53,592 bases of DNA from a virus (lineage: Duplodnaviria > Caudoviricetes), in IMG/VR virus record IMGVR_UViG_3300043420_001594, positions 1 through 53,592 of that record, one strand, 5' to 3'. The position numbers and the translations under genes are program-made. Below the pieces are notes generated by a model. It worked only from the letters and a program-made list of their open reading frames with translations, ran no database searches and was not told the DNA's origin. Of the stretch, positions 23,771-51,301 are shown piece after piece; within the stretch, counting starts at the first letter, position 1; the number at the start of each line of letters is the position of its first letter.

Positions 23771-25648
23771 ATGGCGGATGGAGTCAATCTAGGGGATCGG
23801 CGCCCACGCGCCCGATCTATCGGACGTCCAGAAACGTTCTACCCGAGCCCGTTTTTCGATATCGCGCAGAACTACATCCCACGGTCCGTTAAGGACACGT
23901 TCGATTGGTGTCAGTTCTACCAGTTGACCAACCCGCTGATCAGCAACGTCACCAACAAGATGTCGACGTACGCGATCACGGACCTGGTGTATGACGACGA
24001 AAATGAGGGTGTGGTTGACGAATACAGGGCGTTGTTCGAGAAGCAGTTTCGTCTCAGGACCTTTCTGGTAGAGACGAATTTGGATCGCTTTACCTACGGT
24101 AACTCGTTCGTGTCGGTCTCGTTTCCGTTCATCAAGATGCTGCAGTGCCGGCATTGTGGCGTCTCCAAGGAGGCCAGCAAGCTGAAGTATCAGTTTCGCG
24201 GTTTCAAGTTCGTGATCGACTGCAAGGACTGTGGGCAGTCCGGTGACGCCCTCGCCAAGGACGAGCCGGTCAAGAATCGGATGAAGATTCAGCTGATCCG
24301 CTGGAACCCCAAGAGCATCTCACTCAAGCACAATGAGTTGACGGGCGAAACCAAGTACTACTACTCGATGCCCCGCCAGATCAAGAACGAGATCATGCTG
24401 GGCAAACGGGACGTCCTGCAACAGACCCCGCAGGCCTTCATCGACGCGCTAGCTGCCGGAAAGGCGATCAGTCTGGACTCCAACAAGATCTTCCATGCCA
24501 GACGTCCGTCGGTCTCGCGGGATCCGTACGACAATGGCTGGGGCGCCCCCATGCTGCTGCCGGTCCTGAAGGACGTGTTCTTCCTGCAGGTGTTGAGGAA
24601 GGCGCAGGAAGCGGTGGCGATGGAGCACATCGTGCCGATGCGCACGATGTTCCCGCAGATTACGGCCGACGGTAACAATCCGTACGCCCACATCAATCTG
24701 AAGGACTGGCAGAAAGAGGTCGAGGGCCAGATCAAGAGGTGGCGTCAGGACAACAACCACATCCCCGTCATGCCGGTTCCGATCGGAACGCAGACGATTG
24801 GTGGTCAGGGTAGGGCCATGCTCCTGTTCCAGGAGTTGCGTGCGATCTCTGACGTCATCATCGCGGGCATGGGGGTGCCGACCGGTTTCGTGTACGGCGA
24901 GGCCATGTACTCGGGCGCCAGCGTGAACATGCGGGCCCTGGAGAACGAGTTCTTGGGCAACCGGCAGGACATGTTGCGGCTGGTTGAGTTCGTCCGTGAC
25001 CGTGTCGCCACGTTCTTGGACTTGCCGGCAATCCGCCTGCGTTTCAAGCCCTTCAAGATGGCAGACGACATGCAACGCACCCAGATGCTGATGCAGATGA
25101 GCCAGTCTGGATACGTATCGCGCCGCACCATGCTGCAGTCGATGGATTTCGACTACGCGACTGAGATGGAGATCATCCAGAGCGAGATGTTGGACGCGCA
25201 GAAGAACCAGCGCAAGCAGGCCATCGCGCAGGCGGAGACCCAGGGCGAGGCCATGCTCGCCAGCACCAGGTACCAGATTGAGGCCCAGCAGGCACAGCAG
25301 CAGGCCGCGGCAGAATCGCAACCCCCCATTCCTCCGGGAGGCGCCGCCCCACCAGAACAGGTGCCGCCCGAGCAGGCGCCCCCACCACCCGAAGAGGCGG
25401 CACCACCTCCAGCGGCCGGAAACCAAGTGGTCGATCTGTTCGCGGAAGCCAAAAAGATCAGTAGCCAGCTAAAAAAGATGGATGAGGTTGAGCGGTACCA
25501 GGCTCTGGCCCGCATCAAAGCCCAGAATCCAGACCTATACATGCTGATCAACCAGGCCGTGGCTGGAGGGAACGGCAATAACCGTCCCCTCCAGCCGTTG
25601 CCCGAGAAGCTACCCCCCAGGGCTGGACCCGGTAGGGCGCAGATTTAG
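23771..25648 (+). CDS. Portal protein with inserted Zn-ribbon
   Basis: Portal-like order of elements: NPLISNVTNKMS, YGNSFV, IFHARRP...WGAPMLLPVLK, IIAGMGVP...YSGASV. CRHC...CKDC insert; Pro/Gln-rich tail. Confidence 0.75.
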   Translation: MADGVNLGDRRPRARSIGRPETFYPSPFFDIAQNYIPRSVKDTFDWCQFYQLTNPLISNVTNKMSTYAITDLVYDDENEGVVDEYRALFEKQFRLRTFLVETNLDRFTYGNSFVSVSFPFIKMLQCRHCGVSKEASKLKYQFRGFKFVIDCKDCGQSGDALAKDEPVKNRMKIQLIRWNPKSISLKHNELTGETKYYYSMPRQIKNEIMLGKRDVLQQTPQAFIDALAAGKAISLDSNKIFHARRPSVSRDPYDNGWGAPMLLPVLKDVFFLQVLRKAQEAVAMEHIVPMRTMFPQITADGNNPYAHINLKDWQKEVEGQIKRWRQDNNHIPVMPVPIGTQTIGGQGRAMLLFQELRAISDVIIAGMGVPTGFVYGEAMYSGASVNMRALENEFLGNRQDMLRLVEFVRDRVATFLDLPAIRLRFKPFKMADDMQRTQMLMQMSQSGYVSRRTMLQSMDFDYATEMEIIQSEMLDAQKNQRKQAIAQAETQGEAMLASTRYQIEAQQAQQQAAAESQPPIPPGGAAPPEQVPPEQAPPPPEEAAPPPAAGNQVVDLFAEAKKISSQLKKMDEVERYQALARIKAQNPDLYMLINQAVAGGNGNNRPLQPLPEKLPPRAGPGRAQI

Positions 25649-25840
25649 ACCCATCAGCATGATGGACCTGTCACCACACCGATCGCACTTCCCCATCTGG
25701 TAGTGCGTCGATGGAATGTCATAATGGCGGACGCATTTTGGGCACACCCAGAGGGCTGTCCACGACTCGAAGTGGCGGCAGTCCCGGCAGTCCTTGGGAT
25801 CCGCGCACCACCCGTCCTTCAGACTACATCGGGTCCTCAT
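25610..25840 (-). CDS. Small Cys-rich (multi-CxxC) protein
   Basis: CRDC, CPKC, CDRC; TAATG coupling to the upstream 35-aa ORF. Confidence 0.6.
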   Translation of the reverse strand: MRTRCSLKDGWCADPKDCRDCRHFESWTALWVCPKCVRHYDIPSTHYQMGKCDRCGDRSIMLMGLNLRPTGSSPGG

Positions 25841-25947
25841 TACTTTTCCGGGTCGAGCGCGTCCTCGACGGCGTCATCAAATTCGCCCAGGCTTGACATG
25901 CCGCAGCCGGGGCTCCACTCGACTATCGCCTCAACCCTGTTCTTCAT
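25840..25947 (-). CDS. 35-aa acidic peptide (MKNRVEAIVEWSPGCGMSSLGEFDDAVEDALDPEK)
   Basis: Hand-translated; GGAGGAG RBS directly downstream of promoter copy 3. Confidence 0.55.
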   Translation of the reverse strand: MKNRVEAIVEWSPGCGMSSLGEFDDAVEDALDPEK

Positions 25948-25949
25948 GG

Positions 25950-26033
25950 TAGACTCCTCCTGGAGAGCGGATAAAGTTGGATAGACGTGTGCTCTCCATC
26001 ATTCTTATACCCATGCAGAGACCCGAACTTGCC
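25950..26033 (-). promoter_or_regulatory. Repeated promoter + leader hairpin, copy 3 (divergent from the RNAP gene)
   Basis: CATCATTCTTATACCCA...CCG...TTGC has the same CTTAT-to-TTGC spacing as copies 1 and 2. Leader stem TGGAGAGC/GCTCTCCA. Confidence 0.6.
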
Positions 26034-26044
26034 AGGAGGCCAGG

Positions 26045-29000
26045 ATGTCAGTTCTAGACCCCGAGAGAGTCATGCGGACTCTCGAAGACCGGGTGGCGGA
26101 CAGGATCAAGTCGTTCTTTCCACTGAAGGGTAAGAAGCAGACGTTGGTTGTTCGCGACGTCTATGCCGGCAAGGATGTGGACGTCGATGATATCCACGAA
26201 CAGAAGAAGGCTCGCCTACGGGGGAAGACCTGGTCGACCGGCGTGTACGGAAACATCGATCTGGTCGACAACGCTACCGGAAAGGTCGTGGACAGCGCCG
26301 ACAGCATCAAACTGCTCAGCCTGCCCAAGATCACGCGTCGGTACAGCTACATCATCGAAGGCAGTGAGTATCAGGCCGACAACCAGTGGCGGTTGAAGTC
26401 TGGCGTGTACGCCCGCGAGAAAGCCAACGGGGAACTGGAGACCCAGTTCAATCTGGCGAAGGGGCGTGGATTCCGCATGGGGTTCGACCCGCAGAAGCGG
26501 CGATTCCAGCTGTCGTACGGCACCGCCAATATCCCGCTCCTCCCAGTCCTCCAGGCCATGGGTGTGCCGGACGAGCAGATCCGTAAGTCGTGGGGCGATC
26601 AAGTCTACGCGGCCGCGGTGGCTCAGAAGTCCAAGGGCCAGCTTGTGAAGTTGGCCAGGGCGTTGGAGCCCTACAAGTCCGTGGACACTGACGCGGACGC
26701 CATTCCGATTATTCGGGATTCGTACGGTGCCACTGTCCTGAACCCCGACACCACCGCAATCACGCTCGGTAAGCCGCACGACAAAGTGACGGGCGACGCC
26801 CTCTTATCATCGGCTAATAAGTTGCTGGGGATCAGCCGGGGTGAGCAGGAGGTCGATAACCGAGACTCCCTGCGCTTCAAAGAACTGTGGTCGATTGAGG
26901 ATCACCTGCCCGAGCGCATCCAAAACTCCGCTAAGCGGATCCGTCTCAAGATGATGAACAACCTGGACCGAAAGAGTCAGGTCCGTCAGATCGTCACCAA
27001 CGACGTGTTCAACGTTCCGGTCAAGGCGTTCTTCACCAGCACGTCGCTGTCCCAGCAGACCAGCCAGGTCAACCCGATCGATATGATCGGCGGATTCCTC
27101 CGCACCACCATCATGGGCCCTGGTGGTATTTCGAACGAGAATGCGGTCGGCATGGACGCCAAGATGATCGACCCCAGCTTCCTGGGATTCGTGGATCCGG
27201 TCCACACCCCTGAGGGCGAGAAGTCGGGTGTGACGGGGCACCTGTCGCTGGGTGTCTCTAAGCGTGGTGTGGAACCGACGATTCGCGTGTGGGATACGGC
27301 GGCGAAGCAGTACACCGACAAGACTCCGACCGAATTGGCGCTCAAGAACGTGGCGTTCGCGGACCAGTACCTGTTTGCGAAGGGCAAGGAACCTCAGATC
27401 CGCGGTAAGGTCGCGACCGTCATTCCTCCGGGTGGTTCGGATCCCGTGGTGGTGGACCCTAAGGAAGTGGGCTACATCCTGCAGTCACCTAAGACCGTCT
27501 TCTCCATGACCGCCAATCTGGTGCCTTTCTTGGCGTCCGACCAGGCCAACCGCGCCGGTATGGCGACCCGTCACATGGAGCAGGCCATCTCCCTAAAGAA
27601 CCGGGAGGAACCTCTCGTCCAGACAGTCAGCGGCAACCCAAACGAGCGCTACGGTACGTGGGAGAAGATCATGGGGTCGTTGAACTCCCATGCCGCCCCC
27701 GTATCTGGGAAGGTCGAGTCCATCACGTCTGACTCCATCACGTTGGTGGACGCGGACAAGAAGAAGCACGTCGTGCAGCTGTACGACAACTTTCCGCTCA
27801 ACGACGCCAAGGCCTTCATCTCCAGTACCCCCACCATCAAGGTGGGGGACACGGTGGAGAAGGGGCAGTTGGTGGCCGACACCAACTTCACCAAGGGTGG
27901 GGCGCTCTCGATGGGCATGAATCTCCGTATCGGATTCCTACCCTACAAGGGGTTGGTGTTCGAGGACGGCATCGTGATCAGCGAGACCGGGTCCAGGAAA
28001 CTGACCAGCGAGCACCTCCATAAGTCCAGAGCCTATCTGGACAAGGAGATGTACCTGGGTCTCAAGAAGTTCCGCGCCAACTATCCGGGCGTCGTGACGG
28101 ACGAGAACGCCAAGAAATTGGACGAGGACGGCGTCATCAAGAAGGGGGAGATCGTCAACCCCGGCGACACCATCATGACGATCCTGCAGAAGTCGGATCC
28201 TTCGAGTGAGCAGCTCATGCTCAGGGGCATCCACAAGGCCTTGGTACGCCCGTGGAAGAACAAATCCGTCACATGGGACAAGCCCTACTCAGGCGTCGTG
28301 ACGGACGTGGTGCGTAACGGCAAGGAAGTGCAGGCCTTCATCAAGACTGAGGAGCCCGCCGATATTGGCGATAAACTTTCTGGCCGCCACGGCAACAAAG
28401 GTGTCATCACGGCCGTGATCCCGGACGAGGAGATGCCGAAGGACAAGGACGGCAACCCTCTCGAGATCATCGTGAACCCTTCGGGCGTTCCGGGCCGCAT
28501 CAACTTGGGGCAGGTGTTGGAGACCAGCCTCGCCAAAGTGGCGGACAAGAGGGGCGAGCCCTACGCGGTCGACAACTTTCAGCCCGTCGACGGCAAGAAG
28601 ATCATTCAGGTCAAAGGCCACTGGCGCACCATCAAGAAGGAGACGGGCGAAGTGACGCGCACGTGGGTTGACCCGCATGAGCGTGAGGTCGGTTACCACG
28701 AGCTCGTCAAACAGGAACTCCAGGCCAACAAGGTCAGCGAAACGGAAGAACTGTTTGACGGCGTGACCGGCAAGAGCCTTGGGCAGGTTCTGGTCGGCAA
28801 ACAGTACATCATCAAGCTGATGCACCAGATCGACAAGAAGTTGTCGGCCCGGTCACACGGCTACGGCAACGAGTACGACCAGAATCTCCAGCCCAAGGGC
28901 GGTGGCAAGGCGGGCGCACAGCGATTTGGTGAGCTCGGCTACTACGCCATGCTGGCGCACGGGTCCGTCCACAACCTCCGCGAAGCCGCCACTTACAAGG

Positions 29001-32000
29001 GCGACAAGCAGCAGGATGAGGTGTGGACGGCCCTACAGGCTGGTGAGCCCCTGCCCACCCCGAAACCATCGTTTGCGTACCAGAAGTTCCTAGCCTACCT
29101 GAATGCGGTGGGCGTGAACGTCGACAAAGAGGGCAACGAGCTAATCGTCAAGCCCTTCACAGATGCCCTGATCCTCGCCCAGTCCAACGGAGAACTCACC
29201 GATGCCTCCAAGGTGGTGCGTGGTAAGGACCTGAAGCCCGAGAAGGGTGGTCTGTTCGACGAGCAGGTAACGGGCGGTCCCGGTGGAAAGAACTGGTCCC
29301 ACATCGTGCTGGCGGACCGGATCCCCAATCCTCTATTCGAGAAGGCGATCGTGTCACTGCTTGGCCTGCGGGAAGCGGATTATGACGCGGTAATATCTGG
29401 AGAGAAGGGGTACACCAAGGACGGGAAGCTGGTTCCGGCCGAAGAGGCCGACAAGACCGGTCCCTCCGCCATCGTGGAGCGGCTCAAGAAGGTGAAGGTC
29501 GACGAAGAGTTGGCCTCGGCGCTGGAGGCCGTGAAGACGGCGCGACGCACAGACCTCGACCGCGCCAACAAGAAGGTCAAGTACCTGCGGGCCCTCAAGA
29601 ACACAGAGCTGTCGGCTGACTTGGCCTACACGCTCGGAAACCTGCCGGTCCTCCCCCCGGTGTTTCGCCCCGTCAGCACGATGGAGGGCGGTGACCTCAA
29701 CATCGACGGCCTCAACATGCTGTACCGGGACGTCGCCCTGCTGAACGGTAAGCTCAAGGAAGCGGAAGGTGTGTTGCCCGACGAGGCGGTCGCCTCTCTG
29801 CGCAAGGACCTGTACGACGCAGTGGACGCGCTGATGGGCACGCGCCCCGACAGCGAAGGGGGCAAGACCGAGGACGGGCAACCTAAACCGCCCGGTATCC
29901 TAACGATCCTGTCGGGACGCTCCAGCCCCAAGACCAGCTACTTTCACGACAAGCTGATGGACCGGCCGCAAGACCTGTCCATGCGCTCTGTCATCGTTCC
30001 GGACATGACGCTGGGTCTCGACGAGGTAGGCATCCCACGCAAGGGCGCGATGAAGGTGTACCGCCCCTTCGTGGTTCGTGAGCTGGTACGGATGGGATAC
30101 ACGCCGCTCCAGGCTCGGGAGGAGATGGAGAAGAAGACCGCGCTGGCCAACAGGGCGTTGGATGTGGTGGTGTCGCAACGACCCGTTCTGTTCAAGCGGG
30201 ACCCCGTCCTCCACAAGTTCGGGATCATGGCGTTTCGCCCACGTCTGCATGATGAGCTGGCCATCCACATCCACCCGCTGGTGACCGGTGGCTTTAACGC
30301 CGACTTTGACGGCGACGCCATGGCGATCTTCGTGCCGGTATCCAATGAGGCGGTGCAGGAAGCCTACAAGATGCTTCCGTCCAACAACCTCTACAACGCC
30401 GCGACCGGCAAGGTGATGTACCAGCCCTCCATGGAGAGCCAGCTCGGTCTCTACCTGATAACGCAGTTCGGTAAGGAGACGGGCAAGAAGTATGGGTCGG
30501 ACAAGCAGCTGATGGACGATGTGAGGGCCGGCAAGACCCTCATGACGGACGTGGTGACGGTCGGTGGCAAGAAGACGACGGCCGGCCGGCTCTCTTTCTA
30601 CAACACGCTGCCCGAGTCTGTCCGCGACGACTCCTACCTCACGGATCCCACGCAGGTGATGGGCGACAAAAACCTTCAGAAGGTAATGCGCAAGATCGCG
30701 ACCAAGCAGCCGGGAGAGTTCGCCAACGTGATCGACAAGATCAAGGACCTGGGCTTCAATCACTCCTACGACATCGGCTTCTCTTTCGACCTCAACGATT
30801 TCGACACCCTGCGCAACATCCGTCAGGACGCCCTCAAGAAGGCGGAGGCGGAGGTACTGAAGATCAGGGCATCCAAGATGACGCCTGCTCAGCAGGAGGC
30901 CAAGATCGTGGATGCGTACACCCAGGCCACCAAGGACATGAGCGTGGAGGCCAAGAAGGTGCTGGGTAGTAAAGGCAACAAGCTGTTCGCGATGAACCAG
31001 GCGGGCGTCAAGCCGAGTTGGGCGCAGCTCCAGCAGATGGTGCTGGCGCCCATGCTGCTCCAGAACGCCAAGGGCCGGACCATCCCGGTCCCCGTCACCA
31101 AGTCGTACGCCGAAGGGCTCGATACCTCCGGCTACTGGGTCGCCAGCTCCGGCGCCCGCAAGGGGTTGGTCGAGAAGGTGCTGCAGGTCCAGGAACCGGG
31201 CGCACTGTCCAAGCAGATCGTCAACACGGTGGTGCCGTACGTCGTCACCAATCCTGACTGCGGCACCAAGAGCGGTATCGCGTTGGGCGTGGACGACTCG
31301 GACCTGGTGGACCGGTACGTCGCCAAGGACACGGCTCTGGAGAAAGGCGGGGTCATTCCGGCCGGAACCCTCATCACCCCGTCGGTGGTGGCGAACCTGA
31401 AGGCCAACAAGATCACCAGAGTCGTGGCCCGCTCGCCCATGAAGTGCGAGTCACCGAAGGGGTTGTGTTCAAAATGCTACGGTCTGTCGGACGGTGGCCA
31501 GCCGTTGGCGGTCGGCACCAACATCGGCGTGCTGGCTGGCCAGGCCATCGGTGAGCGCGGCACTCAGCTGTCGATGAAGTCATTCCACACCGGTGGTTTG
31601 GCTGGGTCGGGGAGCAGCGTGGTGGGTGGTTTGGAACGGATCTCCGAGCTCTTGAAAATGCCGAAGATCCTGCCCAACGCCGCCACCATCTCGCACGCCA
31701 ACGGAGACGTCACCAAGATCGAGAAGAGTCCGGTAGGTGGTTGGGACGTATCAGTCGGTAATGAGACTCACTACGTTCCTGCCAGTCGCTCACTCCTGGT
31801 TCGGAAGGGCGAGAAGGTCAAGAAGGGTCAGCAACTCTCCAGCGGATCGATCGATCCGCGCGAACTGCTCGAACAAACCAACATGGAGACGGTGCAGCGC
31901 TACATCTCCGACGAGATCCACAAGGTCTACGCGGCCGAAGGTATCAAGCGTCGTAACGTCGAGGTGGTGACCAAGGCGCTGACCAATTTGGGGCGCGTAG

Positions 32001-32311
32001 AAGACCCGGGCGATAACGACCAGTTTATCCGCGGCGACTTCATCTCGCTGAACCACGCCCAGTCGCTGAACCGGGAGAAGCAGCACGCCAACCCGATTCA
32101 AGTCTCGCCGGTCCTGCGAGGAACCGAGACCTTGGCGCTCGACCAGTCTGATGACTGGATGGCCCGCATGCAGTATCGTAAGCTCAAGGAGACGCTGACC
32201 CGCGCCGCCAACGAGAATTGGAAATCCAACATTCACGGCGTCCACCCCACCCCGGCCATCGCGTACGGGGCGGAATTCGGCCGCAACACGACGGGCGAGG
32301 GTCCGTACTGA
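26045..32311 (+). CDS. Single-chain multisubunit-type DNA-directed RNA polymerase (beta-beta' fusion)
   Basis: Beta motifs: TPEGEKSG, DQANRAGM, FEDGIVIS, GDKLSGRHGNKGVI, AQRFGELG. Beta' motifs: KPEKGGLFD, LPVLPPVFRP, NADFDGD (30296-30316), GARKGL, RSPMKC..LCSKCYG, GQAIGERGTQLSMKSFHTGG. One uninterrupted frame. Confidence 0.95.
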   Translation: MSVLDPERVMRTLEDRVADRIKSFFPLKGKKQTLVVRDVYAGKDVDVDDIHEQKKARLRGKTWSTGVYGNIDLVDNATGKVVDSADSIKLLSLPKITRRYSYIIEGSEYQADNQWRLKSGVYAREKANGELETQFNLAKGRGFRMGFDPQKRRFQLSYGTANIPLLPVLQAMGVPDEQIRKSWGDQVYAAAVAQKSKGQLVKLARALEPYKSVDTDADAIPIIRDSYGATVLNPDTTAITLGKPHDKVTGDALLSSANKLLGISRGEQEVDNRDSLRFKELWSIEDHLPERIQNSAKRIRLKMMNNLDRKSQVRQIVTNDVFNVPVKAFFTSTSLSQQTSQVNPIDMIGGFLRTTIMGPGGISNENAVGMDAKMIDPSFLGFVDPVHTPEGEKSGVTGHLSLGVSKRGVEPTIRVWDTAAKQYTDKTPTELALKNVAFADQYLFAKGKEPQIRGKVATVIPPGGSDPVVVDPKEVGYILQSPKTVFSMTANLVPFLASDQANRAGMATRHMEQAISLKNREEPLVQTVSGNPNERYGTWEKIMGSLNSHAAPVSGKVESITSDSITLVDADKKKHVVQLYDNFPLNDAKAFISSTPTIKVGDTVEKGQLVADTNFTKGGALSMGMNLRIGFLPYKGLVFEDGIVISETGSRKLTSEHLHKSRAYLDKEMYLGLKKFRANYPGVVTDENAKKLDEDGVIKKGEIVNPGDTIMTILQKSDPSSEQLMLRGIHKALVRPWKNKSVTWDKPYSGVVTDVVRNGKEVQAFIKTEEPADIGDKLSGRHGNKGVITAVIPDEEMPKDKDGNPLEIIVNPSGVPGRINLGQVLETSLAKVADKRGEPYAVDNFQPVDGKKIIQVKGHWRTIKKETGEVTRTWVDPHEREVGYHELVKQELQANKVSETEELFDGVTGKSLGQVLVGKQYIIKLMHQIDKKLSARSHGYGNEYDQNLQPKGGGKAGAQRFGELGYYAMLAHGSVHNLREAATYKGDKQQDEVWTALQAGEPLPTPKPSFAYQKFLAYLNAVGVNVDKEGNELIVKPFTDALILAQSNGELTDASKVVRGKDLKPEKGGLFDEQVTGGPGGKNWSHIVLADRIPNPLFEKAIVSLLGLREADYDAVISGEKGYTKDGKLVPAEEADKTGPSAIVERLKKVKVDEELASALEAVKTARRTDLDRANKKVKYLRALKNTELSADLAYTLGNLPVLPPVFRPVSTMEGGDLNIDGLNMLYRDVALLNGKLKEAEGVLPDEAVASLRKDLYDAVDALMGTRPDSEGGKTEDGQPKPPGILTILSGRSSPKTSYFHDKLMDRPQDLSMRSVIVPDMTLGLDEVGIPRKGAMKVYRPFVVRELVRMGYTPLQAREEMEKKTALANRALDVVVSQRPVLFKRDPVLHKFGIMAFRPRLHDELAIHIHPLVTGGFNADFDGDAMAIFVPVSNEAVQEAYKMLPSNNLYNAATGKVMYQPSMESQLGLYLITQFGKETGKKYGSDKQLMDDVRAGKTLMTDVVTVGGKKTTAGRLSFYNTLPESVRDDSYLTDPTQVMGDKNLQKVMRKIATKQPGEFANVIDKIKDLGFNHSYDIGFSFDLNDFDTLRNIRQDALKKAEAEVLKIRASKMTPAQQEAKIVDAYTQATKDMSVEAKKVLGSKGNKLFAMNQAGVKPSWAQLQQMVLAPMLLQNAKGRTIPVPVTKSYAEGLDTSGYWVASSGARKGLVEKVLQVQEPGALSKQIVNTVVPYVVTNPDCGTKSGIALGVDDSDLVDRYVAKDTALEKGGVIPAGTLITPSVVANLKANKITRVVARSPMKCESPKGLCSKCYGLSDGGQPLAVGTNIGVLAGQAIGERGTQLSMKSFHTGGLAGSGSSVVGGLERISELLKMPKILPNAATISHANGDVTKIEKSPVGGWDVSVGNETHYVPASRSLLVRKGEKVKKGQQLSSGSIDPRELLEQTNMETVQRYISDEIHKVYAAEGIKRRNVEVVTKALTNLGRVEDPGDNDQFIRGDFISLNHAQSLNREKQHANPIQVSPVLRGTETLALDQSDDWMARMQYRKLKETLTRAANENWKSNIHGVHPTPAIAYGAEFGRNTTGEGPY

Positions 32312-32321
32312 TCGGGAGTTC

Positions 32322-33440
32322 ATGCGGATCGAGCTTGCTACAGTTCAGGCCGTGAACGTGCGGGACTACACGGTCGACGTGTTGACCGAGCAGAATAGCC
32401 ATCCGTTGATCGGAGTCCCCCTCCTGACCCCGCTCAACCATCCGGACCACATGGGAGGGATCAACTTCCTCCCAGAAGTCGGGTCCAGCTGCTACATCTG
32501 TTTCCCGGACGACGGAACCTACTTTGTTCTGGGGTTCTTCATCAAGGCCGGTGTGGTGGATCCGCTGGTCAGCCCTGGCCCCAATTTCACGGCAAAACGC
32601 GAACCTCTGGAGCCGGGCGACATCTGCATGGCCACGGTGGACGGGAATCAGGTTGTGCTGCGGAGAGGTGGGCTGGTTCAGATCGGCTCCAACGGGCTCT
32701 GTCAACGGCTCTACATCCCGGGCCGCAACATCATCCGCGACTACTTCCAGCGATACCACGCCATCAGTCCGATCGGAGAGATCGACTGGGGTCACGCGCA
32801 ACTCGTCAAAGAAGAGAACCTGGCGGACGGCAACACGTCCGTGGCGGTCCGCTACAATATCCGCCGGATCCTCCAGGAGGACGTGTCGACCAAACCCTAC
32901 ACGCTGGAGATTCGTTTCGGGGTGCTGACAGAGAAGAATCTGGACAGTGATACGGACGAGAAGAACCACCTGTTCGCTAACCCCGGATTCAAGGCGCAGG
33001 AAGGTACCGGAGTATCGAATAGTGCGGAAGGAACTCTCAGCTTCACGATCTTCGACCACAACGACAACGCCAACAAAGTGGTGTACGCGTTCCAGTTGAG
33101 TCGGCAAGGCGACATGTTTCTGATGTCGGACGGACACGTCCACATGGAGGTAGCGCAGACGCTGTACGTGTACGCAGGGGATCACATCACGATCGAAACT
33201 GCGAATAACAAGAATATCGTCCTTAAGGTAGGGGGAGGTGGAAAACTCTACCTGGGTAGTGGGTCTGCCTCCGAAGACGCGATATTAGGGAACCAACTAC
33301 GCACCCAGTTAAACGCGCTTATCGATACGTTCAATAGCCACACCCACGGAACTGGCGTTGGGCCCAGCGGTGTTCCCGCCCCGCAGGCTTCCAGCATCAC
33401 TACCGCCGTCCTATCCACGCACGTCAAGGTAGCGGGGTAG
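32322..33440 (+). CDS. Baseplate central spike (gpV/gp5-like)
   Basis: OB-fold-like N-terminus (FLPEVGS...FVLGF), beta-strand repeats and C-terminal FNSHTH (HxH metal-binding tip). Confidence 0.7.
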   Translation: MRIELATVQAVNVRDYTVDVLTEQNSHPLIGVPLLTPLNHPDHMGGINFLPEVGSSCYICFPDDGTYFVLGFFIKAGVVDPLVSPGPNFTAKREPLEPGDICMATVDGNQVVLRRGGLVQIGSNGLCQRLYIPGRNIIRDYFQRYHAISPIGEIDWGHAQLVKEENLADGNTSVAVRYNIRRILQEDVSTKPYTLEIRFGVLTEKNLDSDTDEKNHLFANPGFKAQEGTGVSNSAEGTLSFTIFDHNDNANKVVYAFQLSRQGDMFLMSDGHVHMEVAQTLYVYAGDHITIETANNKNIVLKVGGGGKLYLGSGSASEDAILGNQLRTQLNALIDTFNSHTHGTGVGPSGVPAPQASSITTAVLSTHVKVAG

Positions 33441-33906: not shown

Positions 33907-33987
33907 GGTCCTGCTTCTCCGTACCAGGCCTAGCTGTTAGCATGTGCTAAGTTGACCGCGTGCTCGCGAACATTACGAGGTAATACG

Positions 33988-35955
33988 ATGCAGCTCACCC
34001 GCAAGATTGAAGGCCCCAAATTTGAGAAGGTGGCGGCCAAGTTCCTATTGAGCGAAAACCCAACGACTTACGCGAGTGAGCTGCTGGCCCACCTGTACAA
34101 GCAGCACCCCTACTTGGGCCAACACCAGGTCAACCTCTCGATTGAGGGCCAGGACGACAGTCTCGGCTACATGTACGGCATCTTCACCGTCAAGGCGGCG
34201 GATGAGGCGGCCGCCGCTGCACCCGTGATGGGTATGACCTCCGGCATGGCGCCACAGTCAGCCAAGCCCACCCTGAGGATCCCGGTGGTGGTGGACAACA
34301 AGAAGGTTCATTCCTTCGACGTCTTCATCACGCCGGAGGGCGCGTTCATGCCGCTCAGCGAGACCCGCGTGGCGGCCGCGTTGTTCGAAGCCAGCCCGTA
34401 CGGAAAGGCCCCGTTCTCCGAGCAAAAGTTGGTCGCCGATGACCAGAAGCAGGACTACCGTACTGACGCGGGTCCTGGTACTGAGATGGGCCGCGCCTTC
34501 TACATGAGCAAGATGTCGTCGGTTCTTCCGAGCGTGCTGAAAAAGCTGGCCTCCCACATCGACCGAGACGCTGCTCAGGCCTACCTGGACAAGTTGTCTC
34601 AGGACCACGCCCTCGTGTCGGCCATCAAGCTGAACCCGCAGTTTGCGGACGCGATCCTCGAACTAGACCAAGCCTCCATGCAGAAGACCGCTTCAGCGGA
34701 AGACCTGGATGTCGATGTGGACGTCGCCGTCTACAGCAAGGCCCCGGGCGGTTACGACGTCCTGTGTGGATCGTTTGATGGCAGCACCCACCACGTCAAG
34801 CTCAGCAACGCACAGGCTGAGCAGCTACCGGTGGACTTTCGTCAGGCTGTCGTTGAGCACGGCGTCGCCATGGTGGTGAGCCGGCAGCACGCCCCGCTGG
34901 AACCGGTCGAGAAGACCGCCTCTTTGCGTGACGTCGAGGAGACCGGCATCTACTCGGTCATGAACAAGGCTGGGTCGGCTCAGCGTGCCGTTGTGATCCG
35001 CGAGGTCATGCGTCTCAACGGAGATGACGCCACCAGCCTGTTGGTCATCGGACCTGCCGGGACTTCCTTGCAGGAGAAGGTGGCGGGCGTGCGGTGCGGT
35101 GACCTGGACGTATCGGCAATCAAGGGATCGGAACCGTACGGTGAGGGCGTGTTCGTGACCCCCAAGGGAGTGATTGAACCCGTCAAAATCGCCAGCACCA
35201 TTACGCAACGTGGTGAGGTGACGTACCTGTACGAGCATCCTTTTTACGGAAAGGGTCAGCTGAAGCTGGCAAACGTCAAGCGTCCCGTCCACATCAGCGG
35301 ATCGGACTTCCTGTTCCCCAAGGACGCCAAGTTCGTTCCCACTAACCCGGGTCTGGGTTACGCGCACGACACCACCACGGTCGACAAGGTGGCGAGCCGT
35401 CGCGACCTCATCAACAAGGTTCAGCTCCTATCGGACGGCTCAGAATTCACGTTCCGGGGCAGCCCGCTGGGCGACCACAAGATCGAGAACGTCAAAGAGG
35501 CGCAGGCGCTCCTGACTCTGGGCTTGCTCGGGGACTCCCCGGTGTCGGCGCTCGACAAGATCGCCAAGGCCAAGAAGAGCGGGGAAGTGACGTTTGTGGC
35601 GAGCCGCCAGTACGGCAAGGCCGACAAAGTCAAGAAGGCGGCGGCGCAACCAATTGACGTGAGCAACATTCGCGTAGATCTTACCAAGGAAGCGGCAGCC
35701 TTGTCGGGTTCCGACACGGTGGATTCGGTCCTGTCGCTCAACTTCATTAACCCGGAGAACATCCAGGGTTACATCGACTGCCTGCCCGATTACGAGACTG
35801 CGGTGCGCAAGCTAGCTGAGTTGCTGATCGGTGTCCGGCTTGGTCTGTCGGACGTTCCGGAGTCAGCCGTGTCGTCGGCCCTTCAGGGCATGGAACGCGC
35901 GATCATCGGCCTGAAGAAACTGCAGATCAGGGTGGGGCTGGAGAGCCGTGCGTGA
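33988..35955 (+). CDS. Large virion-module protein with about 10 K-x-A/S motifs
   Basis: GAGGT RBS; FEKVAA, KKLAS, QKTAS, EKTAS, VKIAS, DKVAS, VKKAA, TKEAA. Confidence 0.7.
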   Translation: MQLTRKIEGPKFEKVAAKFLLSENPTTYASELLAHLYKQHPYLGQHQVNLSIEGQDDSLGYMYGIFTVKAADEAAAAAPVMGMTSGMAPQSAKPTLRIPVVVDNKKVHSFDVFITPEGAFMPLSETRVAAALFEASPYGKAPFSEQKLVADDQKQDYRTDAGPGTEMGRAFYMSKMSSVLPSVLKKLASHIDRDAAQAYLDKLSQDHALVSAIKLNPQFADAILELDQASMQKTASAEDLDVDVDVAVYSKAPGGYDVLCGSFDGSTHHVKLSNAQAEQLPVDFRQAVVEHGVAMVVSRQHAPLEPVEKTASLRDVEETGIYSVMNKAGSAQRAVVIREVMRLNGDDATSLLVIGPAGTSLQEKVAGVRCGDLDVSAIKGSEPYGEGVFVTPKGVIEPVKIASTITQRGEVTYLYEHPFYGKGQLKLANVKRPVHISGSDFLFPKDAKFVPTNPGLGYAHDTTTVDKVASRRDLINKVQLLSDGSEFTFRGSPLGDHKIENVKEAQALLTLGLLGDSPVSALDKIAKAKKSGEVTFVASRQYGKADKVKKAAAQPIDVSNIRVDLTKEAAALSGSDTVDSVLSLNFINPENIQGYIDCLPDYETAVRKLAELLIGVRLGLSDVPESAVSSALQGMERAIIGLKKLQIRVGLESRA

Positions 35956-37921: not shown

Positions 37922-39721
37922 ATGAGTCTGCTGCGCTACATCATGAAGCATGCACAGGTGACGCCTTCGGCCGCCAAGCCGGAGGACAAGCCAGCTGTCG
38001 AGCGCGGCAATAACGTCCCCACCATGAAGCCCGACTTCAAGCCGATGGCCCATCAGGAGGCCGCGGTACAAAAATTATTCGATAATAAGGGGCGGCTGAT
38101 CCTAGCCCATCAGATGGGATCCGGTAAGACGCTGACCTCGATCTACGGGTTCGAGAAGATGCGCCAGTTCGGCAAGGCCAATAAGGCGATCGTCGTGGTG
38201 CCGGCGGGTCTCCGGGAAAACTTCGCAAGAAGCGGTGTGGAAAAGGCGACCAACTCTTCGTTTCAGGTTATCGGATCGTCCGAAGAAAAGAACCGGATGA
38301 GCAACTATGTTCGTCCGGACGAGGTCGACCCCAACAAAACCTACACGATCGTCTCGTACGACCAGATGAGACGCGACCCCGTAGGTCTGATGCAGCGAAC
38401 TGGTGCCGACACCATCATTGCGGACGAGTTCCACAAGACCCGCAACGACCGGTCTCAGGTGTACCGGTCGATGATGCAGGCCCGACAATACGCCACCAAC
38501 TTCATCGGAGTCACCGCATCCCTGATCAATAACCGCCCGGATGAAGTTGCCAAGCTCCTGAACTTATCAGAGGGAGGACCTCCAGTGTCTCCCCGAGACT
38601 TCATGAACCGGTACACCCGGACGGTCGGCACCGCGGAGGGGTTCGGGGGCAGCAAGAAGCGGGTCATCGGGATCAACAATCCTGAAGAATTCGCCATGAA
38701 GGTGGTGCCACGGGTCGACTACTTCGAAACCGGAGACATTCCTGGCGCTGCAATGCCCAGAAAGGACGTCAAGAATGTGTACGTCCCGATGTCTAAGGAG
38801 CAGTACCACCTGTACAGGCTGGCGCTCAATAAGCTGGGGCCCGTGCAAGAGTACATCACCCGGCGCGATCCCAACATCACGCTGAAGGACGCGGACAAAC
38901 TGTTTACCCAGTTGACGCAAGCACGGCAGATCAGCAACTCCATCGCCATGGGTCGCAAGGACGTGTCGGTAGACCAGGCGGCTGAAAGGACTCCGAAGGT
39001 CCGCAAGGTGCTGCAGGATACGGCCCAACACCTGCAGGACCGCCCCGACAACTCCGTGGTCCTGTACAGCAACCTGATCCGCGGTGGCGTGGACGTGCTC
39101 TCGGCTGGACTCAAGAAGGCCGGTATCCCGCATGCGCTCTTTATTGGCGCGGGTACTGAGTTGGGGGACGGAAAGGTCACCAACGTCAGTCGCTCGCAGG
39201 GAGTCGAAGACTTCAAAGCCGGTAAGGTCAAGGTGATCGTGTTGTCGGGCGCCGGCGCAGAGGGGCTGGATCTCAAAAACGCCACTGCCTTCTATTCGCT
39301 TGACGGTCACTTCAATCCTGAAAGGATCATGCAGGCAGAGGCACGGGCTCGGCGTCTGGGCGGGCAGGCCCACCGTCCTCCAGAACAGCGGGTTGTTGAC
39401 GTTCGCCGATATCAGTCGGTGGTCCCGGCGTCAGAGCAACCCGGTGTATTCGGAAAGATGCTGGGTAAGAAGACCCCACAAACCACTGACGAGTGGGCCT
39501 ACAACGTTGCTGGACGAAAGTTTCAGACAGCTCGCCAGTTCTATGACGTGATGCACAAGCCCACCAAGTACATTCGCAAAGAGTACTACACCAGGCGGGA
39601 CGGGACCCGAGCGATCCGCTACACCTACGCCCAGCAAGTTAGTCAGCCGAGAGGCCTATTTAGGAAGTTGTTCGGTCCAAAGGACACAGCCACCGCACCC
39701 GTTAAGCCGCTTGTTGGGTAA
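37922..39721 (+). CDS. SNF2-family helicase/ATPase
   Basis: AHQMGSGKT, IADEFHK, TASLINN, GAEGLDL, FNP...QAEARARRLG. Confidence 0.85.
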   Translation: MSLLRYIMKHAQVTPSAAKPEDKPAVERGNNVPTMKPDFKPMAHQEAAVQKLFDNKGRLILAHQMGSGKTLTSIYGFEKMRQFGKANKAIVVVPAGLRENFARSGVEKATNSSFQVIGSSEEKNRMSNYVRPDEVDPNKTYTIVSYDQMRRDPVGLMQRTGADTIIADEFHKTRNDRSQVYRSMMQARQYATNFIGVTASLINNRPDEVAKLLNLSEGGPPVSPRDFMNRYTRTVGTAEGFGGSKKRVIGINNPEEFAMKVVPRVDYFETGDIPGAAMPRKDVKNVYVPMSKEQYHLYRLALNKLGPVQEYITRRDPNITLKDADKLFTQLTQARQISNSIAMGRKDVSVDQAAERTPKVRKVLQDTAQHLQDRPDNSVVLYSNLIRGGVDVLSAGLKKAGIPHALFIGAGTELGDGKVTNVSRSQGVEDFKAGKVKVIVLSGAGAEGLDLKNATAFYSLDGHFNPERIMQAEARARRLGGQAHRPPEQRVVDVRRYQSVVPASEQPGVFGKMLGKKTPQTTDEWAYNVAGRKFQTARQFYDVMHKPTKYIRKEYYTRRDGTRAIRYTYAQQVSQPRGLFRKLFGPKDTATAPVKPLVG

Positions 39722-39968: not shown

Positions 39969-40451
39969 GTGCCGTTCACTAGTGAGAAGCAACGCCGCTT
40001 TATGTTTGCCGAGCACCCCCGTATCGCCAAGCGCTGGGCCCACGAGAACCCAGAAGGCGACGAGGGCCTCCCCACCTACGCGCATGGGAAGACCACATCC
40101 CCTGACCTCAAGAAGCGCTGGGAAAGGTTGAAGGCTCGTCGTAGTATCGGTAAGCCTCAGGAGGGTGAAGAAATGAAGTACAGTGACAAGGGGGTGGCCG
40201 CCCCATCCAAGGGCCAGAAGTACGCGAAGAAGAAGATGGCTGGCCTGTCGGACCTGATCAAGAAGGCGCAGCCTTCTGGCCCCGTCAATGTCCGCGAAGC
40301 CAGCAATCCCAAGATGAGCTGCATGACCTGCAAGTACTTCACTCCCCTGTCGGGCAACCGCGCGGGCCCAGGTATGTGTGGTGTGGGGTCGAGGCCCGTC
40401 CCCGTCAAAGGCACGGATGTCAGCGATTCGTATGAGTCGAAGGTGGTGTGA
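39969..40451 (+). CDS. Basic protein with C-terminal CxxC domain
   Basis: MPFTSEKQRRFMFA N-terminus; CMTC...C domain similar to 41322..41537. Confidence 0.65.
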   Translation: MPFTSEKQRRFMFAEHPRIAKRWAHENPEGDEGLPTYAHGKTTSPDLKKRWERLKARRSIGKPQEGEEMKYSDKGVAAPSKGQKYAKKKMAGLSDLIKKAQPSGPVNVREASNPKMSCMTCKYFTPLSGNRAGPGMCGVGSRPVPVKGTDVSDSYESKVV

Positions 40452-40452
40452 C

Positions 40453-41537: not shown

Positions 41538-41740
41538 ACCGTCACGGTCCACTTCTGCACCTGCACCCGGGCACCCGGGATCATGTGTCGGACCAGCTGT
41601 TTGACCGACTCCTTTTCCGCGTGGGCGAGCGGCCACCTGATGTGTAGGATCAGGGTATCGCCTTGCTCCTCGTAACGATCCAGTGTATTGCCGAGGGCGC
41701 GGGACAGCATCGCCACGACCCCGGAGAAACGCGTGTTCAA
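41528..41740 (-). CDS. Possible small antisense gene
   Basis: Protein-like 70-aa ORF filling the gap before the terminase; overlaps its uncertain start. Confidence 0.3.
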   Translation of the reverse strand: MNTRFSGVVAMLSRALGNTLDRYEEQGDTLILHIRWPLAHAEKESVKQLVRHMIPGARVQVQKWTVTVQS

Positions 41741-43406
41741 AGTTCACCCCCGGCAAACCCAACAAGTATCCGCCGCATCCCTGGAACTCTTTCCGTCCGA
41801 GTTCACGAGCCACATCATGCGGATGCCGCATGAAGGGGCGCTGGCCCCATTCTCATTCACCGGTCGAGAGTACCTGATACCTGTCTACGATACACCGCAC
41901 CCGCGGGTGCTGCTGATGTTTGCGCGTCAGTCCGAGAAGTCAACAACCCTCGGCAACAAGATCTTGGCGCTGTCGTGCCTGCGTCACCACTTCAAGTCCC
42001 TATTCGTGAGTCCCTCACAACAGCAGACCGAGGTGTTTAGTCGTGACAAACTGTCGTCCCCGCTCAACCTGTCGGAAGACCTGCGCACGTTCTTGGACAA
42101 GAGCGCCAACAACGTGCTGTTCAAGCGGTTCATCACCGACTCCAGCGTGACGTTGAGGTACGCGTTTCTTCACGCCGACCGTACGCGCGGTATTCCGGCA
42201 GACGCGCTGTTCTTGGACGAGATCCAAGACATCTTGACGGACGTGATCCCGATCATCGAGGAGTGTATGTCGCACTCCCCCTACCAGCTCATGACGTATT
42301 CGGGCACCCCAAAATCACTCGATAATACGATCGCCTACTACTGGAACACCTTCTCGACCCAGAACGAGTGGATGATCCCGTGCGACCGGTGCGGTGGTGG
42401 TGACTACCGGCACTGGGACGTGATCGGTTACGACAACATCGGTCCTGAGGGACTGATCTGCAGTAGATGCAAGAAGGGTATCGACCCTCGGCATTCAGAT
42501 GCCCGGTGGGTATCGCAGAGGTCTGCGCGGTGGTTGCAAGCACCAGATGGAATTCCATTTGAGGGGTACCGGATCCCCCAGATCCTGACCAACTGGGTCA
42601 ACTGGCCCAAGGTCCTGGACAAGAAGAATCGATACGGCAAGGCACAGTTCTACAACGAGGTGCTGGCGCTACCGTACGACTCCGGCGACAAGCCCATCAA
42701 ACGGGAGACCCTGCTGGAACAGTGCAGCGGCATCTCGTTTGCGGATTCCGTCAACTTCTCGGGCAGATCAACCCTGTACATGGGAATCGACTGGGGCGGC
42801 ACCACCAACGCGGGGGGTGGTGAGGAGGGCGGCGTTAGGAAGTCCGCCCCCGCCAGCAGCTACACCGTGGTATCAATCGGCGGATATCTGGGCGGCAAGT
42901 TCCAGTACATCTACTTCCGGCGGTTCGAGGGTGAGGAGGCGGTCATGGACAACATGCTGCCCGTCATCATCCAGCTGGTAGATCGATACAAGATCTCGAT
43001 CATCGGTACCGACTACGGCGGTGGCCTCCACCCGAACGACCGTCTGATCCGACAGTTCGGTATCCGCCGTGTGGCTCGCTATCAGTACGTCAATACCCGC
43101 AAGATCTACTTCAACAAGGACCTGCACCACTGGATGGTCAACCGGACAGAAGCCCTCATGGCCCTCATCAACGCCATCAACCGTAAGGACGAGATCCGAT
43201 TCCCCACATTTAGTGACTGGGAATTCCCTTTTGCGCAGGACCTGCTGTCAGTCTTCACCGAGTACAACAGCTCCAACACCCAAATGATCATCACGAAGGC
43301 GCCGGGCTCCTCTGACGACACCATGCACTCCATGATGTACTGCTGGCTGGCCAGCATGATCGAGCACCCACGGCCCGACATTCTGGCTGCGGACCGAACT
43401 CACTAG
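41688..43406 (+). CDS. terL: Terminase large subunit (lambda gpA-like, with Zn motif); start uncertain
   Basis: ARQSEKST (Walker A variant), RGIPADALFLDEIQD, SGTPK, CDRC...CSRC, FYNEVLALPY, MGIDWG, DDTMHS. Confidence 0.85.
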   Translation: MPRARDSIATTPEKRVFKVHPRQTQQVSAASLELFPSEFTSHIMRMPHEGALAPFSFTGREYLIPVYDTPHPRVLLMFARQSEKSTTLGNKILALSCLRHHFKSLFVSPSQQQTEVFSRDKLSSPLNLSEDLRTFLDKSANNVLFKRFITDSSVTLRYAFLHADRTRGIPADALFLDEIQDILTDVIPIIEECMSHSPYQLMTYSGTPKSLDNTIAYYWNTFSTQNEWMIPCDRCGGGDYRHWDVIGYDNIGPEGLICSRCKKGIDPRHSDARWVSQRSARWLQAPDGIPFEGYRIPQILTNWVNWPKVLDKKNRYGKAQFYNEVLALPYDSGDKPIKRETLLEQCSGISFADSVNFSGRSTLYMGIDWGGTTNAGGGEEGGVRKSAPASSYTVVSIGGYLGGKFQYIYFRRFEGEEAVMDNMLPVIIQLVDRYKISIIGTDYGGGLHPNDRLIRQFGIRRVARYQYVNTRKIYFNKDLHHWMVNRTEALMALINAINRKDEIRFPTFSDWEFPFAQDLLSVFTEYNSSNTQMIITKAPGSSDDTMHSMMYCWLASMIEHPRPDILAADRTH

Positions 43407-50092: not shown

Positions 50093-51301
50093 ATGAACCA
50101 GAATGTACCAGGAGAGGTCCTCAACGAGCTATTCTTGACGAAGCTCGACACTGAGGCCGGCAAAGAGAAGATCGCTCAGCTGGGCTCGGACTACATCCGT
50201 GACCGTCTCCGTGAGGAGTCGTTCTCGGCCAAGGTCCTGGCCAAGCGTCAGGTCTCGCGTTCGGAGCTGCAGGTCAGCGTCAACCACGACTACTTGGTCA
50301 AGATCGTTGAGATCGAGCCCCAGAGCCGTGCGATGTCGATGAGCTTCCGCGGTCAGCCGAGCGTCAAGTACTACACTGGCGATCGCTTTGAGTGCGCGTT
50401 CCACACCGTTGGTTCGCTGCGCTACGAGCAGACGGAACAGGAGCTGATGGCGTACTCGATGCCCATCACGCAGATCATCCGTCAAAACATCGTCAACGAC
50501 ATCGCTGAGGTTGAGGACCGCGTGTTCCTCGGCCACATCGAGTCGGCGTGCCAGGCGCTGCAGAAGGATGCCAACAGCATCGCTCTGACCGCGGCGTTCG
50601 CGGATGCCACGGCCTTCACGGCCCGCAACGTCGCCAAGACCTCTGGTGGCGTCAAGGAAGTGGGCAAGGCCAAGGGCATCGACGCCATCGCCAACACCGC
50701 TGCCGCCAGCGATGCTGCGGGTCTGTCGGAGAACCTGATCTTCCCCGTCCAGAAGGACGACATGATCAAGTTGTTCCAGCTCTTTACGGGCACGGGCAAC
50801 CGTGGTTCGCGTCTGCGCTGCGATCAGTTCCTCATCACCGACACCGACTTCGAGGACATCAACTCGTGGGCGCTGGCGGACATGGGCGACAAGATCGTGG
50901 GCGAGACCAGCGTCGACGGTTACAAGTACTCGACGGTGATCGGCCGCAAGTTCATCCGTACCCTGAAGACGGACATCCTCCGTCCCGGCAACATCTACGC
51001 CTTCGCGGCGCCGGAGTTCCTGGGCGGCTTCATGGTGCTGAACAAGCTGCAGTTCTACGCTGACAAGGAGCGCAACCGCGTTTCGTTCGAGGCGTGGGAG
51101 GACATCGGCATGTACATCGGCAATATCGCTGGTTGCCGCAAGCTGGAGCTGTACGCGGGTGCGGTTGAGGTGGCGGCCACCAATACCGCGACCGAGTCGG
51201 CTTACCGCGCCAAGTACCTGCCGGTGGCTGAGGATCAGCTGGGCAAGAAGAACAACCTCGTCGCCGAGGGTGGCACCTTCCCGAATATCCAGCAGTTCTA
51301 A
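50093..51301 (+). CDS. Major capsid protein (HK97 fold)
   Basis: AAGGAGG RBS, strongly biased codons, 402 aa. Follows the protease-scaffold-decoration order; DIAEVEDRVFL helix and WEDIGMYIGN C-terminal strand. Confidence 0.75.
   Translation: MNQNVPGEVLNELFLTKLDTEAGKEKIAQLGSDYIRDRLREESFSAKVLAKRQVSRSELQVSVNHDYLVKIVEIEPQSRAMSMSFRGQPSVKYYTGDRFECAFHTVGSLRYEQTEQELMAYSMPITQIIRQNIVNDIAEVEDRVFLGHIESACQALQKDANSIALTAAFADATAFTARNVAKTSGGVKEVGKAKGIDAIANTAAASDAAGLSENLIFPVQKDDMIKLFQLFTGTGNRGSRLRCDQFLITDTDFEDINSWALADMGDKIVGETSVDGYKYSTVIGRKFIRTLKTDILRPGNIYAFAAPEFLGGFMVLNKLQFYADKERNRVSFEAWEDIGMYIGNIAGCRKLELYAGAVEVAATNTATESAYRAKYLPVAEDQLGKKNNLVAEGGTFPNIQQF

Follow-up and report, generated by a model that had tools for sequence, protein, structure and literature searches.

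The open reading frame (ORF) at positions 26045 to 32311 (+ strand) of the viral record IMGVR_UViG_3300043420_001594 encodes, in one polypeptide, the complete catalytic core of an RNA polymerase (RNAP) of the bacterial multisubunit type, with beta joined head to tail with beta'. The 53,592-nucleotide stretch that we analysed, hereafter the window, is the whole viral record; it is rated 30% complete and represents about 30% of a phage genome of approximately 180 kb. As read in the window, the ORF has 2088 codons plus a stop, and no internal stop. The elements of the gene that carry this finding are the following.

26034..26039, + strand: Shine-Dalgarno-like AGGAGG, 5 nt ahead of the ATG, read from the sequence
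26045..32311, + strand: fused beta-beta' RNA polymerase gene, 2088 aa plus stop (ORF, Pfam and PDB sequence search)
26045..29125, + strand: beta module, residues 1-1027; phmmer matches in the PDB are cyanobacterial beta 29-1047 for residues 13-1019 and Thermus aquaticus beta 321-1100 for residues 269-1027
29126..29179, + strand: beta/beta' junction, residues 1028-1045, from the ends of both homology ranges; flanking residues invariant in 35 clade members
30296..30316, + strand: catalytic NADFDGD, residues 1418-1424; D1420, D1422 and D1424 invariant in 35 clade members

A first-pass annotation of the window, made from the sequence alone, had described a single ORF with beta motifs followed by beta' motifs. 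This is borne out by the uninterrupted frame and by the order of the Pfam domains: Rpb2_3, Rpb2_6 (PF00562, E 1e-52) and Rpb2_7 within residues 339-993, then Rpb1_1, Rpb1_2 (PF00623, E 3.5e-27), Rpb1_3 and Rpb1_5 (E 1e-24) within residues 1197-1880. The motifs QRFGELG (residues 959-965, nt 28919-28939), KPEKGGLFD (residues 1064-1072, nt 29234-29260) and NADFDGD are all found where that annotation had placed them. The protein thus holds both Rpb2 domain 6 and a beta' active-site barrel with NADFDGD, by which we recognise a bacterial-type beta/beta' enzyme. Its best matches in the PDB are bacterial (Thermus beta', E 7e-118; T. aquaticus beta, E 5e-86), archaeal and Pol II chains scoring just 1e-25 to 1e-18, and the beta part itself is closer to bacterial chains (E 5e-86) than to archaeal (1e-25) or Pol II (1e-21) ones. 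In the same search, beta homology stops at residue 1027, equivalent to residue 1100 of the 1119 of T. aquaticus beta, and beta' homology begins at about residue 1046, equivalent to residue 21 of Thermus thermophilus beta'. The ends of these two ranges therefore place the junction at approximately residues 1028-1045, at the natural ends of the subunits and with essentially no linker, inside the QRFGELG to KPEKGGLFD interval that had been proposed for it.

The fused gene is conserved and under purifying selection. A scan of viral contigs gave 21 related loci with 41-93% identity, two of them cut by contig ends, and every one keeps a single open frame across the match. The junction is without a stop codon in all 21 relatives and in the independent contigs that cover it, and the stop at this place that was to have overturned the first-pass reading is thus absent from these contigs. 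Furthermore, a 51,492-bp contig from an independent sample spans the whole ORF with 34 substitutions (23 synonymous, 11 nonsynonymous, no stop) and no indel. Given the 21 frames and this independent contig, an assembly artefact or a junction stop is excluded as far as the contigs show. Near-identical DNA is present in freshwater, aquatic and lagoon metagenomes from several studies. No RNA data set was found among the listed holders of this DNA, the one labelled metatranscriptomic being probably DNA, and this has no bearing on expression. A search of a large protein database returned 2847 matches at E 1e-20 or better among 7999 scored. In all of the 120 homologues listed, on contigs of up to 199 kb, beta and beta' Pfam domains are found in one protein, and annotations reading 'beta subunit/beta' subunit' already exist among the database homologues. 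Using a 500-residue query across the junction, 1.84 billion cluster representatives (50% identity) were also searched and the best 150 examined: all of them cross the junction (144 with one alignment over residues 1000-1090, 6 reaching residues 1085-1087), and 118 have the entire beta plus beta' in one protein.

In many homologues (e.g. L018-L021, L024, P0006, P0044, P0060), the frame also contains inserts of about 340-490 aa bearing LAGLIDADG or intein Pfam domains. There are six recurring insert sites, located by the most conserved motifs at approximately window residues 390, 637, 779, 990, 1430 and 1847, and up to three such inserts are found in one homologue. Seventy-three of the best 150 representatives are longer than 2200 aa.

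To place the enzyme among cellular and phage polymerases, trees were computed by quick searches under the LG+G4 and LG+C20+F+G4 models from 38 rows (9 fused proteins, the homologues of Salmonella phage Arash and Vibrio phage D69, and 27 bacteria of at least 12 phyla) and 2003 or 1961 columns. One branch parts the 11 phage rows from all 27 bacteria, with a Shimodaira-Hasegawa-like approximate likelihood ratio test (SH-aLRT) value of 100 under both models, and Arash and D69 form the sister group of the fused proteins in both trees. These trees have long branches, heterogeneous composition and no outgroup, and their bacteria do not include Bacillota, Cyanobacteria, Campylobacterota or Wolbachia. 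In the phylogeny advised by the first-pass annotation, the fused enzyme does not branch inside the sampled bacteria. At least 600 matches were obtained in bacterial genomes, the best 80 being just 27-32% identical to the fused protein.

In a collection of 50,697 phage records, the closest ones have 31-32% identity, the best being Vibrio phages D69, D181 and D148 (over 98% of the query) and Arash. The Arash enzyme is in two pieces encoded 4.8 kb apart, Gp206 (1525 aa, beta and the N-terminal half of beta') and Gp216 (606 aa, the rest). The beta/beta' boundary is also fused in Gp206, which gives one alignment over query residues 25-1474; in Arash and the Vibrio phages the split falls after the active site, whereas the window enzyme is unsplit. 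In the report on Arash (PMC10585845), Gp206 is named 'beta subunit' and the fusion is not mentioned in the accessible part of the text. Among metagenomic homologues P0131-P0184, the enzyme is split at non-canonical places, at about residues 470, 1100-1170 and 1500, the natural boundary still being fused. Distant pieces of about 1117-1139 aa span residues 6 to 1125-1172, and others of about 916-1138 aa span residues 470 to around 1507. As all split pieces cross the canonical boundary, we infer an old fusion, with the splits at about residues 470, 1100-1170 and 1500 as later events.

The enzyme is compact, as first proposed, with 2088 aa against 2542-2953 aa for beta plus beta' in the 26 complete bacterial pairs sampled. 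In an alignment with 27 bacterial beta plus beta' pairs, we counted the columns held by at least 60% of those bacteria. The fused clade is without approximately 450 of these columns, distributed as follows.

N-terminus: about 31 columns, beta N-terminus
After residues 185-187: about 66 columns, beta lobe
After residue 238: 11 columns, beta lobe
After residue 760: about 114 columns, lineage insertion
After residue 1027: 11 columns, bacterial beta C-terminal tail, at the junction
After residue 1081: 32 columns, beta' zinc-binding domain (CxC...CxxC)
After residue 1134: 11 columns, beta'
After residue 1752: 10 columns, beta'
After residue 1854: about 156 columns, bacterial trigger-loop insertion

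The clade has a single insertion of its own, at residues 851-885. The deleted beta' N-terminal zinc-binding domain is a canonical feature of the bacterial core, and it is also skipped in the alignment with T. thermophilus beta'. The elements that are kept, or that stand in place of lost ones, are listed here.

27032..27130, + strand: segment homologous to the beta rifampicin-binding region, residues 330-362 (T. aquaticus alignment)
28202..28234, + strand: flap-tip-helix equivalent, residues 720-730, SSEQLMLRGIH, ungapped to T. aquaticus SPEERLLRSIF
29270..29287, + strand: TGGPGG loop, residues 1076-1081, in place of the deleted beta' zinc-binding domain; T1076, G1077, G1078 and G1081 invariant in 35 clade members
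29492..29644, + strand: beta' clamp-helices equivalent, about residues 1150-1200, aligned to T. thermophilus beta' 455-520 without long gaps
31259..31477, + strand: second beta' zinc site, kept, C1739, C1801, C1808 and C1811, aligned to T. thermophilus DCGT...C...CxxC and nearly invariant in the clade
31583..31606, + strand: trigger-loop start FHTGG, residues 1847-1851, and the insertion-less site after 1854 (T. thermophilus alignment, clade conservation)

We take residues 720-730 to correspond to the bacterial flap-tip helix, on which sigma region 4 docks, and residues 1150-1200 or so to the clamp helices, the main docking site of sigma region 2. In the rifampicin segment, the D, H, S and L of T. 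aquaticus 'fkDe...rHkrriSaL' are replaced by S340, G350, T355 and M357. These correspond to rifampicin-contact and resistance positions, and the fused enzyme is predicted to be insensitive to rifampicin.

The first-pass annotation had recognised no alpha, omega or sigma gene in the window. Scans with PHROGs (47 ORFs) and Pfam (44 ORFs) agree in finding none of these families in this 30% or so of the genome. Five related genomes were also searched, three of them complete with terminal repeats and two nearly or partly so, and each has a single RNAP locus. One complete relative of 181,199 bp with terminal repeats, G001, is collinear with the window over its 43-103 kb part. There, no match to an alpha or omega Pfam family was found at E 0.001 or better in 213 of the 215 ORFs; the two unscanned ORFs, one being the RNAP gene, run across locus borders.

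In contrast with what had been proposed, a sigma-70-family protein of about 280-320 aa is conserved in all five related genomes with the fused enzyme. In G001 it is a 323-aa ORF (11304-12272) with sub-threshold matches to Sigma70_r3 and r2. The family counts 188 database proteins, many with Sigma70_r3, and a profile of 22 members matches sigma factors alone among the 60 PDB sequences listed, the best being RpoS (E 3.6e-9), whose residues 133-322, from region 2 to region 4, align with profile positions 114-283. The AlphaFold model (pLDDT 80.3) gives sigma factors as all of its top 50 Foldseek hits, with TM scores of 0.21-0.29, low values that are expected for a multi-domain protein modelled free. 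Sequence profile and fold thus find sigma-70 regions 2, 3 and 4 in this partner protein of the relatives, which is also 30% identical to Arash Gp10 (E 4e-29). The gene lies beyond the genome region to which the window corresponds. The sigma homologue P0292 and an RNAP 93% identical to that of the window both have longest contigs of 169,782 bp and, together with the relatives, this suggests that the window's own phage carries the sigma-like gene. The proposal that the enzyme may need neither alpha nor sigma therefore finds support only for its first half: neither alpha nor omega was found by Pfam in complete G001, while 'needs no sigma' is not supported since a sigma-70-family protein is present in all five related genomes searched.

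Arash differs in having a second sigma gene, gp196 (L002:2465-3499; Sigma70_r2, 39 bits), whose sequence shows no relation to that of Gp10. The fused clade yielded no supported homologue of gp196. A single weak match in G001 (E 0.0049) was rejected, hhalign (probability 0.2%) and a phmmer search of the PDB being unsupportive.

We propose, with moderate confidence, that the virion carries the fused core together with the phage sigma, and that both are injected and transcribe the early genes independently of the host enzyme. The covalent link between beta and beta' would take over the assembly role of the alpha dimer, and the fused enzyme would pair with the phage sigma-like factor via the kept clamp helices and flap-tip helix. 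It would be made late, along with the portal, terminase and capsid proteins, packaged in the virion and carried into the cell with the DNA. Early phage genes would then be transcribed without the host polymerase, in a manner probably insensitive to rifampicin. We favour this model on the basis of the Arash virion proteome, the synteny of portal and RNAP genes, the occurrence of one RNAP locus only and the late type of the surrounding genes. The accessible part of the Arash report (PMC10585845) gives Gp206 as the most detected protein of the virion proteome, with 3516 spectra, more than the major capsid protein, and 1210 spectra for Gp216. It also reports the sigma Gp10 in the particles (467 spectra, 100% coverage), together with the helicase Gp217. 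The order portal, small ORF, RNAP is common to the window phage, Arash and Vibrio phage D69. The plus-strand block of the window comprises portal, small ORF, RNAP, six unknown ORFs, an SNF2 helicase, terminase, a protease-like protein and the major capsid protein, of which the main members are listed below.

23771..25648, + strand: portal protein gene, 625 aa, directly upstream of the RNAP gene region; tblastn to Arash gp204 'portal protein', 31.5%, E 1e-83; weak PHROG portal match, E 3.3e-4
25703..25984, + strand: small ORF, 93 aa, in the portal-RNAP interval, at the same position as Arash gp205 and Vibrio phage D69 VPHD69_0260
32322..33440, + strand: 372-aa ORF downstream of the RNAP gene, possible baseplate hub or spike, unconfirmed; Atlas language-model feature search, 0.95 to a cluster with Phage_base_V in 58% of its members, a lead only
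37922..39721, + strand: SNF2-family helicase, 599 aa; Pfam SNF2-rel_dom, E 4e-19; orthologue of Arash gp217, E 1e-43
41688..43406, + strand: terminase large subunit; PHROG 675, E 3e-60; matches Arash gp1
50093..51301, + strand: major capsid protein; tblastn to Arash gp226 'major capsid protein', E 7e-21; 73% identical to its G001 orthologue

The description of the RNAP gene as lying inside a virion gene block was a fair one, with portal, terminase, protease-like and capsid genes on the same strand. Its position between portal and spike was half right: the portal is clear from the match to Arash gp204, and the spike is not, the candidate ORF being a feature-search lead with a poor AlphaFold model (pLDDT 54.7). 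Late expression and virion packaging, which had been suggested from this position, are plausible by homology to Gp206 and Gp216 of the Arash particles and by the portal synteny.

Several points weigh against our proposal. The Arash proteome lists 116 proteins, including enzymes of nucleotide metabolism, and its authors state in the accessible text that abundant intracellular proteins may carry over (PMC10585845). Arash is also distant, with just 31-32% identity and an enzyme in two pieces. The window holds no sigma gene, whose presence in its phage we deduce from the relatives and P0292, and the sigma could serve the host polymerase, as reviews, in their accessible parts, assume for jumbo phages lacking an RNAP. 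The absence of alpha and omega comes from Pfam alone, and alpha or omega of the host could be recruited. Finally, no phage promoter motif was found by eye or by k-mer enrichment. In 63 upstream regions of G001, AT-rich words alone were enriched, and TTCTTATMCCC was rejected as a promoter motif, with 3 matches versus 0.7 expected and 4 of 100 shuffles reaching 3.

The main alternative, though an unlikely one, is that the polymerase is not a virion component: it would be made after infection from genes transcribed by the host, act with the phage sigma on middle or late genes, and not be injected. The carry-over of abundant proteins allowed by the Arash authors, among the 116 listed (PMC10585845), could account for the detection of its homologues in particles, and we identified no packaging signal or processing site in the fused protein. 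On the other hand, Gp206 outnumbers in spectra even the major capsid protein in the same partly accessible report. The complete relatives have one RNAP locus only, and the gene is found among portal, terminase and capsid genes rather than in the opposite-strand replication block. A weak argument against this alternative is that, between 21500 and 41400, no promoter of sigma-70 consensus was found on the + strand and one on the minus strand, versus 5.0 +/- 2.3 in shuffles.

Distinctly improbable, in our opinion, is that the fused protein initiates on its own, or with a factor other than sigma, the sigma-like protein serving to redirect the host polymerase. In its favour, no canonical sigma is used by the known jumbo-phage RNAPs, and the sigma homologues of jumbo phages without an RNAP are considered in the literature to act on the host RNAP. 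Yet all five genomes with the fused RNAP also have the sigma-like gene, and the clamp helices and flap-tip helix, docking sites of bacterial sigma, are kept. The Arash sigma homologue is moreover found in the particles together with the RNAP, as far as the accessible report tells (PMC10585845).

Natural rpoB-rpoC fusions exist in some bacteria. A misassembly or frameshift joining two genes, or the recent capture of a host rpoBC operon by a phage or prophage, is nevertheless hardly credible here, in view of the frame kept in 21 of 21 relatives, the independent contig with its mostly synonymous substitutions and no indel, the 27-32% identity of the best bacterial matches and the long branch parting the fused protein from all 27 bacteria.

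A wider form of our proposal can be advanced, tentatively. The beta-beta' link could be ancestral to a very large superclade of phage RNAPs, in which it would replace the alpha-dimer platform of assembly. Core plus sigma would then be a complete, capsid-borne, bacterial-type holoenzyme of two proteins that begins to transcribe once it enters the cell, needing no host RNAP and unaffected by rifampicin, and Arash/D69 and two metagenomic groups would have split the chain again at about residues 470, 1100-1170 and 1500, with the first junction still fused.

The window phage is a member of a large lineage of uncultured tailed phages, whose genomes measure approximately 170-190 kb. The minus-strand replication block of the window encodes a family A DNA polymerase, a primase, a DnaB-like helicase, a RecA-like protein and a Cas4-like nuclease. 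No convincing + strand terminator was found between the portal and RNAP genes. On the plus strand, the SNF2 helicase is conserved downstream of the RNAP, and its Arash orthologue Gp217 comes directly after the C-terminal beta' piece; it could be a polymerase-associated translocase. A ferritin/Dps-like ORF (40378-41049, + strand; Pfam E 1.3e-6; PHROG 'DNA binding protein') is located in the helicase-terminase interval. The 93-aa small ORF has no PHROGs or Pfam family match and no BLASTP match to G001 at E 1e-5, and the 667-aa ORF at 33952-35955 gave no usable match in the Atlas search. A 1253-aa protein (1703-5464, + strand) with a weak right-handed beta-helix match and 33% identity over 746 residues to a 2522-aa G001 protein is probably a tail fibre or spike. 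G001 also encodes, among others, a Ro60/TROVE-vWA protein (L042:15117-16841), a ThiF-family protein (L040:7455-8117) and a patatin-like phospholipase (L042:4373-5350). The similarity of a 1180-aa G001 ORF to Arash gp8 is weak (E 0.002) and was not used.

How does this enzyme compare with known systems? The rpoB-rpoC fusions of Helicobacter and Wolbachia are full-size proteins of about 2900 aa that work with alpha, omega and host sigma. They share the same natural boundary, whereas the window protein has 2088 aa, without the beta' zinc-binding domain and the lineage insertions, and its best 80 bacterial matches do not exceed 32% identity; neither Helicobacter nor Wolbachia is in the trees. According to the accessible parts of published accounts, the jumbo-phage RNAPs of phiKZ and AR9 are, like the fused enzyme, without alpha and omega, and the virion carries one of their sets to transcribe early genes. 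However, these RNAPs consist of 4-5 polypeptides in two sets and have no recognisable sigma-70-family factor, whereas the fused lineage has one polypeptide, one set and a sigma-70-family gene. The RNAPs of crAss-like phages (gp66) and of P23-45 (fused to the tape measure) are described, in similarly partial sources, as single-polypeptide, two-barrel, virion-carried enzymes too divergent for beta/beta' profiles, in contrast to the fused protein, which matches bacterial beta' and beta strongly. Arash resembles the fused lineage in its genome of about 180 kb and in the homologous sigma Gp10 as well.

The mReC are metagenomic Caudovirales with bacterial-like beta and beta' that form a clade apart from cells, some of their subunits being compact (about 1000 and 900-975 aa), as given in the accessible part of that study (PMC7481178). 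Compared by description only, beta and beta' are separate genes in all 47 rows of its supplement that we examined (PMC7481178), as opposed to one 2088-aa protein here. The accessible text mentions fusion for crAssphage alone, and none of the 12 taxon numbers of the fused loci is found among the rows examined (PMC7481178). The mReC definition asks for two separate proteins of at least 800 aa each, and the fused protein falls outside it.

In the literature searched, which did not extend to subscription journals, we found no description of phages whose bacterial-type RNAP has beta and beta' fully fused. Jumbo-phage RNAPs set a precedent for doing without alpha and omega. It is the combination of a complete, strongly bacterial-like core in one chain with a sigma-70-family gene that is new relative to this literature. 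Reviews, in the parts accessible, divide phages into those with their own RNAP and no sigma, and those with a sigma and no RNAP; the fused lineage has both. This lineage is large, with at least 118 clusters at 50% identity having the whole enzyme in one protein. If our proposal is true, a 2088-aa core with a sigma of about 290 aa and neither alpha nor omega would be smaller than any other bacterial-type machine known to use a canonical sigma, and would bear directly on the long-standing view of the alpha dimer as indispensable for the assembly of two-barrel RNAPs. It would also give structural and synthetic biology a compact, orthogonal polymerase that is probably insensitive to rifampicin. 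Phages equipped with the fused RNAP and their own sigma may thus transcribe their DNA without the enzyme of the host.

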